A stretch of DNA of 64,000 nt from an uncultured Eubacteriales bacterium (GTDB lineage: Bacteria; Bacillota; Clostridia; Peptostreptococcales; Anaerovoracaceae), in contig CACYYH010000002.1 in NCBI GenBank assembly GCA_902778565.1, positions 5,659 through 69,658 of the forward strand, read 5' to 3'. This document shows, piece after piece, positions 3,001-49,666 of the stretch. The notes beneath the pieces are model-generated. The model was not told the DNA's origin and did not search any database. It was given only the letters and a program-made list of their open reading frames with translations. Numbering within the stretch: the stretch's first letter is position 1; every line of letters starts with the position of its first letter. A program made the translations under genes and the position numbers.

Positions 3001-3749
3001 GAATATCCATCCCTATACTTGATCATATAATAAATATCACCATTTGATTCAAAAACTGATTTAGGGACAGGCAAAACGAACGTACGACCTATAACGGTTT
3101 CATCGTCATCACCATAAATCTCGATTACATTTGCAATCGGGGTTCCTTCAACCAGAGTATGATTTGTCTCATCAGATGCATCAAGTATCTCACTCTGTTT
3201 GCCATAAGCCATACCATTAAAACGATCAAGAGTACTTGCTTCTGTAGCACCATCAATGGATGTGATAAGCCATGCATTATCGCCTTTGATGACCACGCGT
3301 GCTGATTCAGAATCGAAGTGGTACATGCTAACCAATGCAGTTTTCAGTCCGGGAATAGTGTATGTGCCATCTGCAAGTTCAACGGGATCAGCTGCCGGCT
3401 CATCCCCATCACCTCTGACCGGTTCAGCAGTTACAGCTGCCACTTCAGGAGCTTCTTCCTGTACCTCAGGTTTAGGAATTTCAGCTGTAACTTCAGGAGC
3501 TTCTTCCTGAACAACTTCCGGCGCAGGCTCTTCCTCAGCAGGAAGTTCCTCCTGTACCTCAGCTTCAGGTTCTGCAATTTGCTCTGCCTCTTCGGCTGCC
3601 GGTGCAGCTTCAGCTTCAGGAGCGTCTAAGATCACTTCATTAGCTTCAGCTTCTGTGAAATCATCAGCATAAACCGGCATGGCCATGAACGTGAATACCA
3701 TAGCCACCGACAGGAGCATCACTAAGGCTTTTTTTAATCCTTGTTTCAT
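1..3749 (-). CDS. Large secreted cell-surface protein, C-terminus outside window (>=1249 aa): signal peptide, acidic Pro/Glu/Ala-rich linker, DUF4430-like (transcobalamin-like) module, helical ...ALTxxQK... repeats
   Basis: Absent from the ORF track because no stop lies in the window. Manual minus-strand translation from ATG 3749 gives MKQGLKKALVMLLSVAMVFTFMAMPVYA... with RBS AGAAAGGAAAAG upstream. The frame checked at the window edge still reads ...DNYTVKVPSVYGTMAE. The segment LWGISSTNNLFYINDKGIPSGVTTDTVKEGDVLYV resembles DUF4430. The plus-strand ORFs at 1224-3629 are shadows. Confidence 0.85.
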   Translation of the reverse strand, partial: MKQGLKKALVMLLSVAMVFTFMAMPVYADDFTEAEANEVILDAPEAEAAPAAEEAEQIAEPEAEVQEELPAEEEPAPEVVQEEAPEVTAEIPKPEVQEEAPEVAAVTAEPVRGDGDEPAADPVELADGTYTIPGLKTALVSMYHFDSESARVVIKGDNAWLITSIDGATEASTLDRFNGMAYGKQSEILDASDETNHTLVEGTPIANVIEIYGDDDETVIGRTFVLPVPKSVFESNGDIYYMIKYRDGYSSSTATHDGDWYKAKGGDYYLTGYTLEWESDSTALPGEEQGPELIENRTLEMWNEQAMFKAVSASLEIYSDGSRTLVFALSGTGYIALYKGTYPEAVLDKDAIVAAMEANESTDKTIIYQTNDEGKYEFRIPLDEGQTYIPLISVSKRGFDNRATQPIEEKGFYARQATLVDEETKMNLEDYKENVEFTLSTELADFKANTTVPVYITGGPVNNNYGVAPTITMLDSTYDSVVYPSVVDGTVSTKTTALEDGKFAISIENAPNKHAFKDKTPLTFTFHVAESAPYEEAGTDVERTVTFDQLAKTITVEGTALTPKEIIEPAEPANVTFTLSNKGSFVTGKDGVAVIDRPVTVTDIDEDGSLTYDEALVAAHNAYYEGGAEAGYDPSTGMVKKLWGISSTNNLFYINDKGIPSGVTTDTVKEGDVLYVSINADASYYADWYTKFSESDLETTSEDDVTVTLTGHMGMDLSTDVQFVPLEGIQIGVWKDGSFEAIEGAVTDKDGKATFKLDAGKYILTAKGTVEGTVTDWNLMNYKTMDGTVDGTAFVKYDFDTYETYVAYTDEDHGNGPYPADEVKFISMYDEEGDETEWESLHYLKSNQLISDCPIMAPYANLTVKQGGEPAYPAGEYIVGVNSIKLADGADYGMFIPNYNGIKGKALITIAADGSATINYYNTRNTYPKIFLAELDSSALGKVATDEQLADPRCITAEVYAGDSSYREFTYSFDISDLGKTVPYVTLNKSNTFNKTQTAFVFDETMMSKAAFEVVGLIDALPAAANVTVRDKDAIEAARAAYEALTETQKTEVTNLDKLVAAEEAYAALPEKDEATIAVETAMGTLIQQYYDVNDTTAAAVAKTRADYEALTLQQKAYIEDSALFKLHRAEACVAFANDGIAEGAIYDMAVDTSDNSPFVAATISPRSNAAYVYLYSVAEEYSGAALVSGTVSKSTHTVVGNGSVLKGLWMVQTSEGQGRTFVMKLTGANGDSDNYTVKVPSVYGTMAE

Positions 3750-3832
3750 ATGCTTTTCCTTTCTCTAAAATAACTAGTTTAACAAGTTTCTCGCTTTCTG
3801 GATTTGCTTTCTTTCTTTGGCCCTCCAGCCAA

Positions 3833-3898
3833 ACAAAAAACCTCCTTTCCTCAGAAAGCAGGTGCTCTTAACGCAAAAACAGGCCCGGAGGCCTGTTA
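3833..3898 (-). terminator. Two tandem intrinsic terminator hairpins (expression platform of the cobalamin riboswitch)
   Basis: Minus strand has AACAGGCC-TCCG-GGCCTGTT followed by TTTTGCG (3872-3898). It also has CCTGCTTTC-TGAG-GAAAGGAGG followed by TTTTTTG (3833-3863). Both lie between the aptamer and ATG 3749. Confidence 0.7.
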
Positions 3899-45512: not shown

Positions 45513-46744
45513 CAGTCAATAAAAACCTTTCTGATTATGTCTATGAAATCCTTGTTGTTTCTGGTGTGGGCCAGATTGTCTATGATCTCCTCAGTGACCT
45601 GATGCTCAGGCTTGGATGAAAGGGCTTTTCTCATAGCCCAGACTGCTTCCAGCTCGTCCTGGCTCATCAGAAGATCCTCACGTCTCGTTCCGGACTTGTT
45701 CAGGTTCACTGCCGGGAAGATCCTCAGCTCGCTGAGTTTGCGGTCAAGATGGAGTTCCATGTTGCCGGTGCCCTTGAACTCTTCATAGATGACGTCGTCC
45801 ATTCTGGAACCCGTCTCCACAAGGGCTGTGGCAAGGATCGTGATGGATCCTCCCTCTTCCATGTTTCTGGCTGCTCCGAAGAACTTCTTGGGTTTATGAA
45901 GAGCTCCCGGATCAAGTCCGCCGGAAAGGGTCCTGCCTGAACTGGGCACCACCATATTGTAAGCCCTGGCAAGACGTGTGATACTGTCTAATAATATTAC
46001 CACATCTTTCTTATGTTCAACCAGACGTTTTGCGCGTTCGAGGACCATTTCCGCCACCTGCACGTGGTGCTCCGGAAGTTCGTCGAAGGTGGAGTATATG
46101 ACTTCCCCATCCTTCAGACTTCTCTTCATATCGGTCACCTCTTCAGGTCTTTCATCCACAAGGAGCACGATGAGTTCCACGTCGGGATAGTTGGTCTCTA
46201 TGGCGTTGGCGATCTTTTTGAGAAGCACGGTCTTGCCCGCCTTGGGCGGAGCTACGATCAGGCCACGCTGGCCTTTTCCTATAGGCGCTATAAGGTCTAT
46301 AAGGCGAGTGGAGAGCTCCGTTCTCACGGTCTCCAATCTCAGCCTCTCATTAGGAAATACAGGCGTCAGATCGTCGAATTTCGGCCTTCTGATGGCTGCC
46401 CCGGGTTCCTCTCCATTAACCGTATTCACGTAAAGCAGTGCACCGAAACGTTCTCCCTCGTGAGGAAGTCTGGTGACGCAGTTTATCTTGTCGCCGGTCT
46501 TCAGATTGAAGCGGCGGATCTGCACCGGCGACACGTAGATGTCCTTGTCAGAGGTGAGAAAGTTGTCGAATCTGAGGAATCCGAAGCTGTTCTCCTCCTG
46601 GATATCCAGGATACCCTCCACCACAGGGCGCTCGTCCTTTGGCTTGGCTTTGGGCTCCTGAGCTGAGGTTTCCGCTGCCTCTTCAGAAGCCGGAATCTCT
46701 TCAGAATTCAGTTTTTCTTCTATTATATTTTTATTATCTTCCAT
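45512..46744 (-). CDS. rho: Transcription termination factor Rho
   Basis: GGAGA lies 6 nt before ATG 46744. CSD-like GFGFLRF, Walker A APPKAGKT. Confidence 0.92.
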
Positions 46745-47396
46745 TTTTGTCTCCGTAATATACTTTGTTGTGAGCAAAGCGCATGATCAGTCCGGCGCCC
46801 CAGGTCATGATGATAAGGACTGCAAATATCAGTACTCCGACTTTCCAGCCCCAGGTCAGGAATCCATACCAGTCGTTGGTGTCCGGCCATTCGCCTGTTC
46901 CGTTTATGAGATTGTTCCCGACATACCCGGCGCCATAAATAAGCGTGGGGATCACCGAAACAATGCTTTCCTTCAGGCTGATGGGTACTCTTGCTCCCAG
47001 CACAAAGGATGCAATAGCCATAAGCGGTACCAGAAGATGCAGCCATAGGGTTGCACCGCTGTAAAGTCCGGGGATTTTAAGTACAGGCCACAGAAACAGC
47101 AACACTACGAGAAACGTCAGGGTAACCGCCGTCGCTCCTGCGAGCCTCAGCTTCGTGATCCAGGCCGGAATATCAGTGTTATGCTTAAGTTTTCTGATGG
47201 TGTATACAACAGTCAGAGCAGAAGCTGCTCCCATGAGCAGATTCGAAAGAATCGTGAAATATTTGAGATTTCTGAGACCACTGGCTGAGATCGTTCCGTT
47301 ATCGCCCCATGCAAATATCATCTTGAGCCAGGCGTAAAGGAACATAATTGAAATTAAGATGTCTAATGCAAAAGAAATTTTTTCTCTGGTCTTCAT
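46734..47396 (-). CDS. Integral membrane protein, about six TM segments, function unknown
   Basis: The ORF extends to 47501 (GTG). However, TTGCAA-N17-TAAACT (47432-47460, minus strand) lies inside that extension. The likely start is therefore ATG 47396 ([12 protein letters not shown]...), with a distant RBS. Confidence 0.6.
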
Positions 47397-47561
47397 AGTT
47401 GCAAATGCGGGAACCCTCCCCGCTGCAGTATAGTTTACTACAGGCAATGGTTTTTTGCAAGTGGCCGGGAGACAAGGGAACATCGCCTTGCTTTCAGCCA
47501 CACGTCCCCTTTGTTGCTTAATGCGGCTGAACTGATAGATTTTCTTTTCTTATCTTTTTAA

Positions 47562-48356
47562 TTACAGCAGAAACTCCTCTACCAACCGATGCACGACCTT
47601 GACGTTCAGGGGCGAGTGCTTTGTTTCAAAGGTCAGGATCATATTCACGCCGGGATAAAATCCGCTGAGCATCAGATCGTTGAGACGCCCTACATTGTAT
47701 TCCATGTATTCCGTATCGTCTGCTCTTCCGAAGTGTTCCCAGATAAATATCCTGCGCAGAGCCACGTTCAGCAAAGTGAAGTCCGGGTGTATGATCTTAC
47801 CATTCCAAAGTTTAAGCGGGCACTCGTACTTCTTAGGAACAGGATAGCTGTCAAAAACATCTGCCAGCAATGCTTCGGATTTAGATCTGACTCTCAGACC
47901 GTTGACAGAGTAATATTCAGGGTCATTTTCATTAAACCTTTTAGGTTCATATGGGTCATTCAGCCATTGCTCAGCATACTCCGCATCCGTGATGAACGCC
48001 TTTCTTACCAATTCTTTCCTCGGGAGAGTCAGTTTTTCATATACTCCCTCTGCAGACTCCCTGTCCCGGATCCTGACCAGTTCCTTAATGGCCGCACTCT
48101 CTTTCTCTGCTGCCTTTTTTACCAGGATATCATAATCACGCTGCGCGATAGCTTCAGCGTTGATCATATTATCTCTTCTGACATATTTACCTGACCTGTC
48201 AGAGGCTGCGCTGCGTATATAGCACCTGGTTCTTCCCTTGTCGTTTACTACCCTCAGCTTTCCCTGCGGAGCATCTGACAGTATTTTTTCAAATGTTATG
48301 ATCATCTTATCCAATTCAGCTTCTCTTTTTCTCAATTCACTTTCTAATAATCTCAT
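47562..48356 (-). CDS. Hypothetical protein with N-terminal coiled coil and C-terminal PD-(D/E)XK-like nuclease motifs
   Basis: GGGAGG lies 7 nt before ATG 48356 (MRLLESELRK...). The C-terminal region RSKSEALLADVF...YECPL...IHPDFTLL...IFIWEHFG resembles restriction-endonuclease-fold (DUF559/TnsA_N-like) cores. Confidence 0.55.
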   Translation of the reverse strand: MRLLESELRKREAELDKMIITFEKILSDAPQGKLRVVNDKGRTRCYIRSAASDRSGKYVRRDNMINAEAIAQRDYDILVKKAAEKESAAIKELVRIRDRESAEGVYEKLTLPRKELVRKAFITDAEYAEQWLNDPYEPKRFNENDPEYYSVNGLRVRSKSEALLADVFDSYPVPKKYECPLKLWNGKIIHPDFTLLNVALRRIFIWEHFGRADDTEYMEYNVGRLNDLMLSGFYPGVNMILTFETKHSPLNVKVVHRLVEEFLL

Positions 48357-48382
48357 TTCCATACCTCCCTGATAATAAAATA

Positions 48383-48690
48383 GACCACACATCCCTATTA
48401 TCTTGGATTGTGGTCCAGTATTATTAGTTTTTATTTGGTTTTTTGCTAAGGGTCTGGCCTGTTCAACCCTTGTTATCTGGTTGTTTTGGACCGCATCAGC
48501 TGCTCCACATCAATTGTGGTCCAAAGCACATCTTTTGCATTGGACCGCATCAGCCACTCCACATCAATTGTGGTCCAAAATACATCTTTTGCAGTGGACT
48601 GCATCAGGCGCTCCACATCAATTGTGGTCCAAAATACATCTTTTGCATTGGACCGCATTCGGAGTAATGCACTTTTGTGGTCCACTGAAT
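48383..48690. repeat. Array of five dyad elements (T[GT]GAC[CT][GA]CA - about 19-nt spacer - TTGTGGTCCA); four of them form 54-bp tandem units
   Basis: Units are 48486-48539, 48540-48593, 48594-48647 and a diverged 48648-48690. An isolated dyad GACCACA-N19-TGTGGTC lies at 48383-48415. Confidence 0.85.
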
Positions 48691-48767
48691 GAATTCATCC
48701 CGGCAAAAACCTTTTGACACTGCCATTTTACCACACCCAAACTTCCTTTTCAGTCCAATCCTGCAAA

Positions 48768-48799
48768 AAACACAAAAAACGGCGCCCCGCAGGGCGCCG
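48768..48799 (-). terminator. Intrinsic terminator after hbd
   Basis: Minus strand GGCGCCC-TGCG-GGGCGCC followed by GTTTTTTGTGTTTTTTG. Confidence 0.85.
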
Positions 48800-48817
48800 C
48801 ATTCATGCTAAGCGATA

Positions 48818-49666
48818 TTATTTCTGATAGTTGTAGAATCCTTCGCCTGTCTTACGTCCAAGCTTGCCTGCTCTTACCATCTTTCTGAGTAAAGGATGTG
48901 CTGCATACTTGGGGTTGCCGAATTCATTGTAAAGAACGTCCATGATAGCTAAGCATACATCGAGTCCGATGAGGTCGCCCAGTTCAAGAGGTCCCATGGG
49001 GTGGTTAGCACCAAGCTTCATAGCTGTGTCGATTCCTTCTACGGAAGCAACGCCGTCAGCATAGATGCCGATACCTTCGTTGATCATAGGGATCAGGATC
49101 CTGTTAACTACGAATCCGGGAGCTTCTGCTACTTCTACAGGAGTCTTGCCCAGGATCTGGGTGAGTTCAAGGATAGTAGCCTTTGTCTCTTCGGAAGTTG
49201 TAAGTCCGCAGATGATCTCAACGAGCTTCATAGCGGGTACAGGATTGAAGAAGTGCATTCCGATAACCTTGTCAGGTCTGCCGGATGCAACTGCGATCTC
49301 TGTGATTGAAAGGGAGGATGTATTGGTAGCGATGATGGTATCAGGCTTGCAGATCTCATTGAGCTGTGCAAATAATGCCTTCTTGGCTTCCATATCCTCT
49401 GTTGCTGCCTCGATTACCAGGTCTGCGTCTGCGATGATGTTGATATCGGTGGAGCCATGAACTCTTCCGAAGATCTCATCAGCTTCAGCTTGCTCGATCT
49501 TGCCCTTGGCAACCATCTTGTCCAGGTTCTTCTTAACGGTAGCAAGTCCCTTCTCGATAGAAGTTTCACGTCTTGCTCTCATTACTACTTCATAACCCTT
49601 CTGAGCGCATACCTGAATGATGCCTGCTCCCATTGTGCCTGTTCCTAATACGCCGATTTTCTTCAT
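48818..49666 (-). CDS. hbd: 3-hydroxybutyryl-CoA dehydrogenase
   Basis: 282 aa starting MKKIGVLGTGTMGAGI, and continuing ...FFNPVPAMKLVE. Confidence 0.92.
   Translation of the reverse strand: MKKIGVLGTGTMGAGIIQVCAQKGYEVVMRARRETSIEKGLATVKKNLDKMVAKGKIEQAEADEIFGRVHGSTDINIIADADLVIEAATEDMEAKKALFAQLNEICKPDTIIATNTSSLSITEIAVASGRPDKVIGMHFFNPVPAMKLVEIICGLTTSEETKATILELTQILGKTPVEVAEAPGFVVNRILIPMINEGIGIYADGVASVEGIDTAMKLGANHPMGPLELGDLIGLDVCLAIMDVLYNEFGNPKYAAHPLLRKMVRAGKLGRKTGEGFYNYQK

Follow-up and report, generated by a model that had tools for sequence, protein, structure and literature searches.

The 410-bp region upstream of the gene at 47562-48356 (minus strand) in the window, the 64,000-nucleotide stretch of DNA analysed here, is probably a DNA-level array of five dyad-symmetric predicted binding sites for the 264-aa protein encoded directly downstream. 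Modules of such a gene and an adjoining array of putative sites, with a site sequence of their own each time, recur in thousands of gut and rumen bacteria. No description of the 264-aa protein family or of this type of array was found in the literature, and the gene-plus-array module has not been described previously.

The five dyads lie no more than 330 bp 5' of the gene, each consisting of TGGACC(A/G)CA, 18–19 nt and TGTGGTCCA. The motif TGTGGTCCA occurs exactly five times in the window, always on the plus strand and within 48409-48684, compared with 0.53 copies expected by chance, and none of 100 shuffled sequences reached five. The inverted partner of each copy is located 18–19 nt upstream on the plus strand, as TGGACCGCA at 48487, 48541 and 48649, TGGACTGCA at 48595 and TAGACCACA at 48381. 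The exact motif count and the located partners bear out the five dyads of the original prediction. In gene sense, the proximal dyad (48381-48417) reads TGGACCACA (48417-48409), 19 nt and TGTGGTCTA (48389-48381). The four distal dyads, identified at 48487-48684 by motif search, TRF and sequence reading, form 53–54-bp units with plus-strand arms at 48487-48495/48515-48523, 48541-48549/48569-48577, 48595-48603/48623-48631 and 48649-48657/48676-48684. TRF reported a tandem repeat at 48486-48658 with a period of 54, 3.2 copies, 91% matches and a score of 297. In the fourth unit (48649-48684), the arms are kept and the loop has diverged.

The F-arm spacings in gene sense are 53, 54, 54 and 106 bp. 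The last of these, the distance from the proximal dyad to the nearest distal one, corresponds to 10 helical turns. Each TGTGGTCCA also pairs as a dyad with the next TGGACCGCA, 17 nt downstream on the plus strand, which had been missed earlier, indicating that the array is a chain of half-sites about 27 bp apart with alternating orientation. With one mismatch allowed, 14 half-sites were found in the window against 11.8 expected. Only five of them fall outside the array, which is the chance level, suggesting that the motif is not dispersed in the window. The check for a dispersed REP-like dyad likewise revealed no further copy in these 64 kb.

The array is bounded by recognizable expression signals. 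A ribosome binding site (GGAGG, 48364-48368, minus strand) was read from the sequence 7 nt upstream of the ATG at 48356 and 12 nt from the edge of the proximal dyad, and GGAGG or AGGAGG is likewise found directly past the last arm in the orthologues. On the other side of the array, the promoter scan and sequence conservation point to a promoter block, GGATTGGACTGAAAAG-N14-TGTGGTAAAATGG (48722-48762, minus strand), with a predicted -35-like CTGAAA at 48753-48748 and a TRTG-extended -10 TAAAAT at 48730-48725, separated by a 17-nt gap. In this orientation, transcription is predicted to run through the entire array into the gene. The block is kept upstream of the array in eight of the homologous loci compared, which are labelled L002, L003 and so on to L225 (here L002, L003, L129, L131, L132, L134, L135 and L138). 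Loci that share the block differ in arms and spacers, and L003 differs in genomic context as well. A second, weaker promoter-like site, TTAGCA-18-AATAAT, matches 9 of 12 consensus positions at 48420-48449 (minus strand); if it were active, transcription would start within the proximal dyad. The intrinsic terminator of the upstream hbd gene, located by a terminator scan at 48779-48800 (minus strand), marks the outer boundary of the module, and the order hbd, terminator, block, array and gene is common to L002, L129, L131, L132 and L135. No minus-strand terminator between array and gene was identified in 48356-48720. The proposed position of the array in a 5' leader behind an extended -10 fits the subfamily of the window, where the promoter was found and is conserved in orthologous loci. 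In other subfamilies, however, the array is placed 5' of the promoter or 3' of the gene.

The ORF at 47562-48356 encodes the 264-aa protein (MRLLESEL...), which gave no match in Pfam, NCBIfam or PHROG and nothing meaningful in PDB sequence and profile searches. Its AF2 model (pLDDT 93) comprises a variable N-terminal helix and beta-hairpin (aa 1-48), a long coiled-coil helix (aa 61-100) and a PD-(D/E)XK nuclease-like domain (aa ~150-264). Foldseek matches to the PDB were all PD-(D/E)XK nucleases but weak (E≥3e-3), with Bax1 (E 3e-3), DrdV, MunI, R2 RLE and FAN1 as the best ones. The C-terminal domain resembles the C-terminus of PADLOC PDC-S68 (HMM, E 1e-13 to 6e-30). Across 87 sequences, R157, S158, K159, E161, E178, D192 and R201 do not vary, and conservation of E207 and H208 reaches at least 90%. 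The conserved acidic residues and lysine (E161, E178, D192 and K159) are presumed to be metal-binding or catalytic. Together with the fold matches and the PDC-S68 homology, they support the initial assignment of a PD-(D/E)XK-like gene. A fold search with the N-terminal module only returned no DNA-binding fold, with weak look-alikes among prefoldins, V-ATPase stalks and coiled coils (E≥0.07).

Homologues of the protein form 3,360 clusters at E≤1e-30, and the family comprises more than 3,000 clusters at 50% identity, in which named members are annotated as hypothetical protein only. Its hosts include Lachnospiraceae, Oscillospiraceae, Erysipelotrichaceae, Fibrobacter and Treponema from gut and rumen, and Butyrivibrio sp. 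XPD2002 and JL13D10 are among the carriers in culture. Of the 112 loci that have 700 nt or more of flank, 63 show arrays of alternating inverted arms beside the gene in a strict test. Looser tests detected an array at about 79% of loci with enough flank, and about a fifth of such loci retain the gene with no detectable array. The comparison strongly supports array and gene as a conserved two-part module. The arm sequence is 8–10 bp long and locus-specific; within one array, arms are 91–100% identical, and spacers are random in sequence and constant in length (loops and linkers are 21–47% identical in L003, L132, L135 and L144). This pattern firmly supports strong purifying selection on the arms, with spacers that appear free in sequence and fixed in length.

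Array size and position vary among the homologous loci. L002, whose protein is 83% identical to that of the window in the same genomic context, carries two distal dyads and the proximal one, and dyad copy number varies between close relatives in general. Near-identical units occur in the window, L134 and L177, suggesting that arrays grow by tandem duplication and that spacers drift afterwards. The array is downstream of the gene in L152, L170, L171, L191 and L198, on both sides of it in L141, L168, L195 and L225, and far upstream of the promoter in L126. Across subfamilies, only its proximity to the gene is conserved, not its position relative to promoter or gene. The loci lie between housekeeping genes with conserved synteny, also across species with hbd 88–97% identical. 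At orthologous loci with 97% identical hbd and 89% identical rho, the family protein is only 58% identical and the arms are different. Searches of 72,556 plasmids and 50,697 phage records found essentially no members of the family, with one weak partial plasmid match. A scan of the whole collection for TGGACCGCA-N15-25-TGTGGTCCA returned only single chance matches in unrelated phyla. Four MAGs contain two family copies, and none has strictly detectable arrays at both.

The spacing of the units points to a role of the array as DNA. Unit-to-unit distances cluster at 52–54, 63–64, 72–75, 85–86, 95, 105–108, 117, 128, 137, 146–149, 158, 264, 296 and 307 bp, and single arrays mix spacings (e.g., 63/95/85 and 64/64/117/64). 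The best Rayleigh period of these distances is 10.55 bp with phase 0. The Rayleigh R was 0.886 in the first analysis and 0.853 and 0.812 in two independent locus sets, compared with a maximum of 0.44 in 1000 random-distance simulations per set. The spacings are thus whole multiples of 10.55 bp, as in B-DNA phasing, and dyads an integral number of B-DNA turns apart would all face one side of the helix. Helical phasing of successive dyads on one face is therefore strongly supported by the distances.

Arm identity also tracks the N-terminus of the protein. For pairs of proteins that share at least 65% identity over aa 49-264, identity over aa 1-48 is 66% when the arms are the same and 44% when they are different (Mann-Whitney p=1.4e-4), whereas the rest of the protein shows 76% and 74% identity, respectively (p=0.18). 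L133 and L134, which differ in their arms, are 99% identical past residue 45, and 27 of their 29 differences fall within aa 1-45. Arm alleles differ between loci (e.g., TGGACCACA in the window and TCAGCTACA in L129). They can differ even between proteins 77–89% identical overall, which weighs against the binding model in that it demands a specificity set by few residues. These comparisons strongly support a correspondence between arm identity and the first ~45 residues (helix 1 and the first strand of the beta-hairpin); the coiled coil and the PD-(D/E)XK domain are conserved. Upstream arrays physically adjoin the start of the gene, however, and recombination of the two together could yield the same correlation without functional coupling. 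The alternative offered in the original prediction, a phased array of protein-binding sites, gains strong support from this co-variation and the 10.55-bp quantisation.

A working model can be proposed for the binding array. The 264-aa protein would bind each dyad as a dimer joined via an antiparallel coiled coil, with half-site centres 27–28 bp (about 95 Å) apart. Dimers on the same face may interact and form one cooperative nucleoprotein complex. In the subfamily of the window, where the array is preceded by the conserved promoter block and its last arm directly adjoins the ribosome binding site, this complex would span promoter to ribosome binding site and could act as a roadblock or operator stack, resulting in tight negative autoregulation. 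Autoregulation cannot be the whole story, since the arrays of other subfamilies lie downstream of the gene, on both sides of it or far upstream of the promoter. The array may also provide a high-affinity sink that holds a catalytically competent, potentially toxic nuclease off other chromosomal DNA. Arrays would expand and contract via unit duplication, and array and recognition module may be exchanged or co-evolve as a pair, giving each lineage a private specificity.

An RNA-level element, in which the array is transcribed, either as the gene's 5' leader or as an antisense RNA from the plus strand, and its tandem hairpins are bound or processed by the protein, as for ToxI, a CsrB-type sponge or a TIGR/CRISPR-like guide array, is an unlikely alternative. 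The conserved promoter would transcribe the array in the subfamily of the window, a terminator hairpin follows the downstream array in L168 and L175, and some PD-(D/E)XK enzymes cut RNA, with cap-snatching and splicing endonucleases among the weak fold matches. Both strands fold better than shuffled sequences (z = -4.0 and -5.1), as any inverted repeat would, and in the minimum-energy predictions the arms are nested across long distances instead of forming five separate hairpins, so that folding does not discriminate. The arms are complementary and co-vary between loci. Dyad-symmetric protein sites, however, give arm covariation resembling that of RNA structure, and the two can be told apart by helical quantisation and the absence of G-U bias. 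Spacings mixed within arrays in steps of 10.55 bp have no RNA rationale. In 36 homologous arrays, wobble-compatible mismatches are equally frequent on the two strands (42 vs 37; 30 vs 30), and transversion mismatches outnumber them (101 and 102). L002 contains an A-opposite-G arm mismatch that is unpaired on either strand. In the window itself, the four distal units are recent duplicates, so that its G-T pattern represents no more than one or two events. The stem sequence is common to all hairpins of an array and the loops are randomised, suggesting selection for sequence rather than structure. No terminator separates array and gene, the region 47000-49500 gave only chance-level Rfam matches (E≥1.4), Nop, Cas and ToxN-like domains are missing from the protein, and an exact search of viral contigs with two unique, constant-length spacers of L144 gave nothing, a weak result when taken alone. 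The plus-strand multi-hairpin RNA that was formerly read from the G-T oppositions is not supported. The DnaA-box-like loop motif noted at the same time is not conserved in any homologous array, where loops are unrelated in sequence. The array of the window would itself be transcribed, so it may have an additional RNA-level role. The type III toxin-antitoxin class was rejected on the lack of a terminator, the PD-(D/E)XK fold, the absence of G-U or strand bias and the helical spacing. CRISPR- or TIGR-like guide arrays were rejected because Cas and Nop domains are missing and unit length varies within arrays in ~10.5-bp steps, in line with the original view that nothing here is CRISPR-like.

Two further readings keep the array at the DNA level. 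In one, regarded here as rather unlikely, the array has a non-regulatory role in cis (centromere-like, iteron-like or chromosome-anchoring), perhaps as the remnant of an integrated element, and its adjacency to the gene reflects co-inheritance only. Partition sites and iterons typically are phased tandem sites with private specificities, as observed here, and the preservation of proximity alone across subfamilies is consistent with this reading. The spread across phyla implies horizontal transfer, and the L141 contig, which starts and ends in the same array and carries only the gene and an acetyltransferase gene, may be a small circle. On the other hand, no ParA, ParM, TubZ or Rep-type partner gene was found in the examined neighbourhoods, the family is nearly missing from plasmid and phage records, the loci are syntenic between housekeeping genes, and a pure centromere-binding protein would not need the conserved catalytic residues of a nuclease. 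A ParABS-type partition system or an iteron replicon was rejected as a class, with no ParB, RHH or Rep match, a coiled coil plus PD-(D/E)XK fold, and housekeeping neighbours. The other reading, mobile-element ends or relics (REP/BIME-like repeats with a cognate nuclease, or multi-site transposon ends), is very unlikely. Each RAYT has its own REP type, and BIMEs are alternating inverted short repeats, which the short inverted repeats of alternating orientation in these arrays resemble; at some loci the gene is flanked by arrays on either side, and many metagenomic contigs break within the array. However, the dyad is confined to the array within the 64-kb window, no HUH, DDE or recombinase gene was found, the locus is syntenic across species, and neither target-site duplications nor a terminal inverted structure beyond the array were detected. 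REP/BIME with RAYT was rejected as a class on the missing HUH domain and the lack of further dyads in the 64 kb of the window.

Among known systems, plasmid partition and operator arrays (F sopC-SopB, R1 parC-ParR and the pSM19035 omega heptads) also consist of tandem, phased sites adjoining the gene of the binding protein, with private, fast-diverging specificities. The F sopC units also hold an inverted repeat like the dyads of the window. Cooperative binding on one face, and an array that doubles as an autoregulatory operator as in R1 parC, are proposed likenesses. The differences are a protein with a coiled coil and a PD-(D/E)XK nuclease-like domain in place of ParB, RHH or HTH, 9-bp half-sites with 17–26 bp of free sequence between them, no partner ATPase, and chromosomal, syntenic loci essentially absent from plasmids. 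Iteron-Rep origins share phased repeats adjoining the cognate gene, variable copy number and promoter-near inverted copies that could autorepress. Iterons are direct repeats of 17–22 bp, whereas the units here are dyads, and the family has no Rep fold, no plasmid context and no DnaA boxes or AT-rich unwinding element conserved across its loci. Type III toxin-antitoxin systems (ToxIN, CptIN and TenpIN) have the same order of promoter, tandem repeats and potentially toxic nuclease gene, with repeats that are locus-specific in sequence and number; in both cases the repeats are proposed to neutralise the protein. ToxI, however, acts as RNA, with a terminator before toxN and a Kid/MazF-like RNase fold, none of which is found in the window.

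TIGR-Tas arrays contain two alternating 8–12-nt repeats with variable sequences of constant length between them, and the repeat, which is specific to each locus, is recognized by a symmetric dimer with a coiled coil (Faure et al., 2025; PMC12045711). In TIGR, the units are RNA, the spacers measure 9 nt and the product is fixed at 36 nt, and the systems include box C/D motifs and Nop-domain proteins (PMC12045711). The arrays of the window's family share the alternating short repeats, the variable sequences of constant length, the locus-specific repeat sequence and a proposed coiled-coil dimer as reader, but their repeats are mutually reverse-complementary, their spacers are 17–60 nt long, their units lengthen or shorten by single turns of DNA, and a Nop domain is missing from the protein. 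In the parts of Altae-Tran et al. (2023; PMC10910872) considered here, non-CRISPR interspaced repeats with variable spacers are described beside nucleic-acid-interacting proteins, including an AddB-like PD(D/E)XK protein with an array preceded by a conserved promoter. That protein differs in being a helicase-nuclease of large size, and small RNAs were demonstrated from the arrays. Neither the 264-aa family nor helical phasing can be recognized in those parts of the main text.

FokI-type and TALEN/ZFN nucleases resemble the proposed module in mechanism only. They combine a swappable recognition module with a conserved nuclease domain, and inverted half-sites with an ~18-bp spacer could likewise allow two nuclease domains to meet here. 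The domains are unrelated in sequence, the sites of the window are arrayed beside their own gene, and cleavage is only predicted. We tentatively suggest, as a possibility that should be read as speculative, that the module could represent a new class of modular nuclease that is site-specific and self-addressed. The choice of 9-bp half-site would depend on a swappable module of ~45 residues, and two PD-(D/E)XK domains would meet over the ~18-bp spacer in a natural FokI/TALEN-like geometry. The phased array would serve as a DNA 'antitoxin' or sink, and the nuclease could be released by loss or replacement of the locus (addiction or allelic exclusion) or by infection-induced changes (defence). 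The rapid joint turnover of array and module, which takes place at a conserved chromosomal site, would then reflect selection for private specificities.

A large undescribed family now has a testable hypothesis, in which a DNA array is its proposed partner and sequence specificity apparently resides in a small exchangeable module. If the ~45-residue module reads 9–10 bp, the natural pairs of module and arm would reveal how protein-DNA recognition co-evolves, and the family may be a source of compact, re-targetable DNA-binding or DNA-cleaving domains.

The five dyads predicted originally between the hbd terminator (48779–48800) and the start of gene 47562–48356(−) are present as described. The arm TGTGGTCCA occurs five times in the 64-kb window, always on the plus strand (48409–48684), against a chance expectation of 0.53, and this count was reached by no shuffle. 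An inverted partner lies 18–19 nt to the left of every copy. A 54-bp period was detected by TRF at 48486–48658 (3.2 copies, 91% matches), and a fourth unit keeps the arms with a diverged loop. Read in gene sense, the array consists of an F arm (TGGACCACA), 18–19 nt, an R arm (TGCGGTCCA), 17 nt and the next F arm, with F-to-F distances of 53, 54, 54 and 106 bp. The R arm of the gene-proximal dyad is TGTGGTCTA instead of TGCGGTCCA. A GGAGG ribosome-binding site begins 12 nt downstream of the end of the last arm, and no terminator was found between array and gene in the window. A small hairpin (AAGGGT, 12 nt, ACCCTT) at 48451–48474, between the distal array and the proximal dyad, is kept in L001 and L002; it is not an obvious terminator because no U-tract follows it on the gene strand.

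The gene order hbd, module (family gene plus array), membrane protein, rho and DUF1385 is syntenic in two homologous loci, L002 and L129. The module occupies the same position in L132, L134, L135 and L213, where no copy of the membrane-protein gene was detectable; rho lies closer behind the module in L132 and L134. Compared with the window, L129 shares 97% identity in hbd and 89% in rho but only 58% in the family protein, and its arms differ. L002 shares 97% identity in rho and 83% in the family protein, with the same arms and two distal units versus four. The module thus forms a hypervariable island in a position that is itself conserved. Fast evolution is also seen in the membrane-protein gene that directly follows the module (46734–47501, minus strand), which shares 73% identity with its counterpart in L002 and 61% with that in L129 (rho, 97% and 89%). 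A block of about 40 nt upstream of the array (GGAATTGGACTGAAAAG-N14-TGTGGTAnnAT) combines a −35-like hexamer with a TRTG extension and a −10; it is conserved in all the loci that share this position and also in L003, which is located elsewhere in its genome. The block is therefore part of the module, and the array is most likely transcribed from it. The 5′ end of the gene, which encodes the variable N-terminus, also contains a promoter-like site on the opposite strand that is directed into the array (48275–48302, plus strand; CTGACA-16-TATGAT with TG, matching the consensus at 10 of 12 positions).

A total of 160 further homologous loci from metagenomes and GTDB species genomes were compared, with several more from exact-protein look-up. 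Arrays in which arms of inverted orientation alternate were found throughout; they reach about 20 dyads and differ in arm sequence from one locus to the next, examples being TGGGCCACA, CGACCACA, TCAGCTACA, CAGACGCAA, GGGTCGAA, ACCTATAA, TACATACT, GGGGCGTA, GGCTAATA, GGCTATAA, GGCAGACA and CCTATGCC. For example, L003, with a 56% identical homologue in another genomic context, carries four dyads TGGTACACA-N18-TGTGTACCA at the same position with unrelated spacers. Of 112 loci flanked on each side by 700 nt or more, 63 passed a strict test (at least three similar dyads, 9-nt arms, at most one mismatch); inverted 7-mers were enriched above shuffles in about 14 more of the 112, and about 11 more loci have tandem repeats of period 52–74 or 128 beside the gene. 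These three screens detected no array in roughly a fifth of loci. The array usually lies upstream of the family gene; it is immediately 3′ of the stop codon in some subfamilies (L152, L170, L171, L189, L191 and L198) and on both sides of the gene in L141, L168, L195 and L225.

L168 has four 73-bp units upstream (1973–2264) and eight downstream (3284–3867) followed by a terminator hairpin, and L225 has about 20 dyads in total on the two sides of the gene. Linkers of the 74-bp subfamily (L177 1877–2432, L170 3250–3810, L141 1–360) are strongly purine-rich on the gene-sense strand with phased A-tracts (e.g., GGAAGAAGTGATAATGCAAGGAAAAAAAGAAGAAAA), in upstream and downstream arrays alike, which suggests intrinsic DNA curvature or transcription of the gene-sense strand. 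The noncoding stretch upstream of the family gene in L126 (Butyrivibrio sp. JL13D10, CP172573) is 1.1 kb long; about 20 copies of a 17–18-bp A/C-rich tandem repeat (CAACAAATCAACGATAAG-like, 3420–3790) sit there between TTCATCC/GGATGAA dyads and a good TTGACA-17-TATTAT promoter. Both ends of metagenome contig JAEEGL014098554.1 (L141, 1–2927) lie inside the same GGCTAAGT dyad array, and its only genes are the family gene, a 216-aa hexapeptide-repeat acetyltransferase with a Vat/streptogramin-type look (assigned by eye) and a truncated P-loop ORF. L141 could represent a small circle, a tandem arrangement or an artefact of assembly.

The 264-aa product has no match in Pfam, NCBIfam or PHROGs, nor in PDB by sequence. 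All family members named by any source among 2,419 relatives from a word-seeded search are "hypothetical protein". An exhaustive profile search retrieved 8,720 clusters (50% identity), and for 3,360 the E-value is 1e-30 or lower; the 150 best-scoring have lengths of 249–344 aa. The AlphaFold model, built from 87 homologues, is confident (pLDDT 93). It comprises helix 2–27, a beta-hairpin at 33–48 and a 40-residue helix (61–100) packed antiparallel to helix 1. Short helices come next, and an alpha/beta domain begins near residue 150. Modelled alone, the N-terminal 148 residues resemble only coiled-coil proteins, e.g., prefoldin (E ≥ 0.07). The Foldseek matches of the alpha/beta domain are weak, and every one is a PD-(D/E)XK nuclease (Bax1, DrdV, MunI, R2 endonuclease, FAN1). 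Homology also links this domain to the last ~120 residues of the PADLOC defence-candidate PDC-S68 proteins, which are ~1,200 aa long (E 1e-13 with the window protein, 6e-30 with a Butyrivibrio homologue). The nuclease-like active site is conserved: R157, S158, K159, E161, E178, D192 and R201 are invariant in 87 sequences, and E207 and H208 nearly so, and from this the domain looks capable of catalysis. Overall, the product is a modular PD-(D/E)XK-domain protein, widespread and uncharacterised; literature searches yielded no description of the family or of the array type.

Because arm sequences are private to each locus, their reader must be locally encoded, and the family protein is the only conserved neighbour of the array. 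The arms co-vary with its N-terminal 45 residues. Among protein pairs at least 65% identical over residues 49–264, identity in residues 1–48 is 66% in same-arm pairs (n = 11) versus 44% in different-arm pairs (n = 34; Mann-Whitney p = 1.4e-4, the pairs not being independent), and the rest of the protein is alike in both (76 vs 74%, p = 0.18). The most extreme pair, L133 and L134, with arms TCAGGCTACA and CAGACGCAA, is 99% identical over residues 46–264, and 27 of its 29 differences fall within residues 1–45. Between the window and L002, whose arms are the same, the N-terminus is better conserved than the rest (88 vs 82%). We read residues 1–45 (helix 1 and the first hairpin strand) as a putative specificity module. 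Because an upstream array is the immediate neighbour of the gene's 5′ end, recombination of one DNA segment could produce this correlation too. The divergent block stops just before the conserved YYIR motif (residues 46–48) in several independent pairs; that its limit falls repeatedly on a structural landmark favours a functional unit without proving one.

The original prediction saw in the G-T oppositions a hint of a plus-strand multi-hairpin RNA and offered a phased protein-binding array as the alternative; the RNA reading is not supported, and the alternative is strongly supported. In non-duplicate arrays, unit-to-unit distances are quantised (52–54, 63–64, 72–75, 85–86, 95, 105–108, 117, 128, 137, 146–149, 158, 177, 189, 212–222, 264, 296 and 307 bp), and their Rayleigh periodogram has its maximum at 10.55 bp and phase zero (R = 0.886). 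The phasing recurs in two independent sets, window plus metagenome loci (R = 0.853) and GTDB genomes (R = 0.812), against a maximum of 0.44 over 1000 random-distance simulations per set; with each distinct distance counted once, R is 0.857 versus a null maximum of 0.72. Different multiples are mixed within single arrays (63/95/85, 64/64/117/64, 73/94/73/94). This period is one turn of B-DNA, so the dyads within an array all lie on the same side of the duplex, a constraint for which RNA offers no rationale. Among the arm mismatches of 36 arrays, 42 sense versus 37 antisense are wobble-compatible in F-to-R pairs and 30 on each strand in R-to-F pairs; transversion mismatches are commoner (101 and 102). 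Selection for an RNA helix should leave an excess of G-U and a strand asymmetry, and the mismatches show neither. The G-T pattern in the window is one or two substitutions copied by recent unit duplication, and L002 has an A-opposite-G arm mismatch. Near-identical units in the window, L134 and L177 indicate that arrays grow by tandem duplication. In arrays of old units, arms are 91–100% identical, and loops and linkers have drifted to 21–47% identity at exactly unchanged lengths; purifying selection therefore maintains the arm sequence common to the units as well as the spacing, and goes beyond pairing inside individual units. Both leader strands fold better than shuffles (z = −4.0 and −5.1), which does not discriminate because any inverted repeat must fold so. 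Arms that stay complementary while their sequence changes between loci would register as "covariation" if analysed as RNA; here this is the signature of a symmetric binding site. Rfam has no match for the array in the window. An RNA element is accordingly quite improbable.

A DNA-level binding-site array for the adjacent protein is, on these comparisons, very probable. The protein would dimerise through the antiparallel coiled coil, and a dimer would read both half-sites of one dyad, their centres 27–28 bp (about 95 Å) apart; dimers lined up on one DNA face would cooperate. In the subfamily of the window, the complex would fill the leader from promoter to RBS, repress the gene and act as a high-affinity sink holding the nuclease. 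Repression and sequestration as the main function of the array has somewhat less than an even chance; the binding-site array and this role taken together form a model that we consider reasonably likely. Some arrays are found on the 3′ side of the gene, or at a long distance from the promoter on its upstream side (L126), so autoregulation cannot be the sole role. The arrangement works like partition-site, operator or iteron arrays (sopC, parC, iterons) but departs from those classes in protein family, partner genes and replicon context. A site of centromere, iteron or anchor type is unlikely. Mobile-element ends or REP-like repeats are very improbable. Half-sites with one mismatch occur outside the array at chance frequency only, and the motif is not a dispersed repeat within the window; collections of plasmids and phages contain essentially no members of the family.

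TIGR arrays (PMC12045711) and the non-CRISPR interspaced arrays of Altae-Tran et al. (PMC10910872) have layout features in common with the arrays described here, but differ in protein domains, arm symmetry and, above all, the quantisation by DNA turns seen here. Type III toxin-antitoxin loci are alike in gene order only. With a recognition module that can be swapped, a nuclease domain that is conserved and half-sites in inverted orientation about 18 bp apart, the arrangement recalls FokI/TALEN geometry, as an analogy and not a finding.

The family is represented in Lachnospiraceae, Oscillospiraceae, Erysipelotrichaceae, Fibrobacter, Treponema and a Tenericutes MAG, in every case from gut or rumen, so the family has moved horizontally. 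Modules with phased dyads were found in rumen and gut Fibrobacter (L232, L236, L253, L255, L259) and Treponema (L248, L266, L271, L272). The presence of the module in Fibrobacterota, Spirochaetota and Firmicutes implies transfer between phyla within these habitats. The constant feature is the linkage of the protein to a cognate cis array, and the specificity of the protein appears to co-evolve with its own site array.
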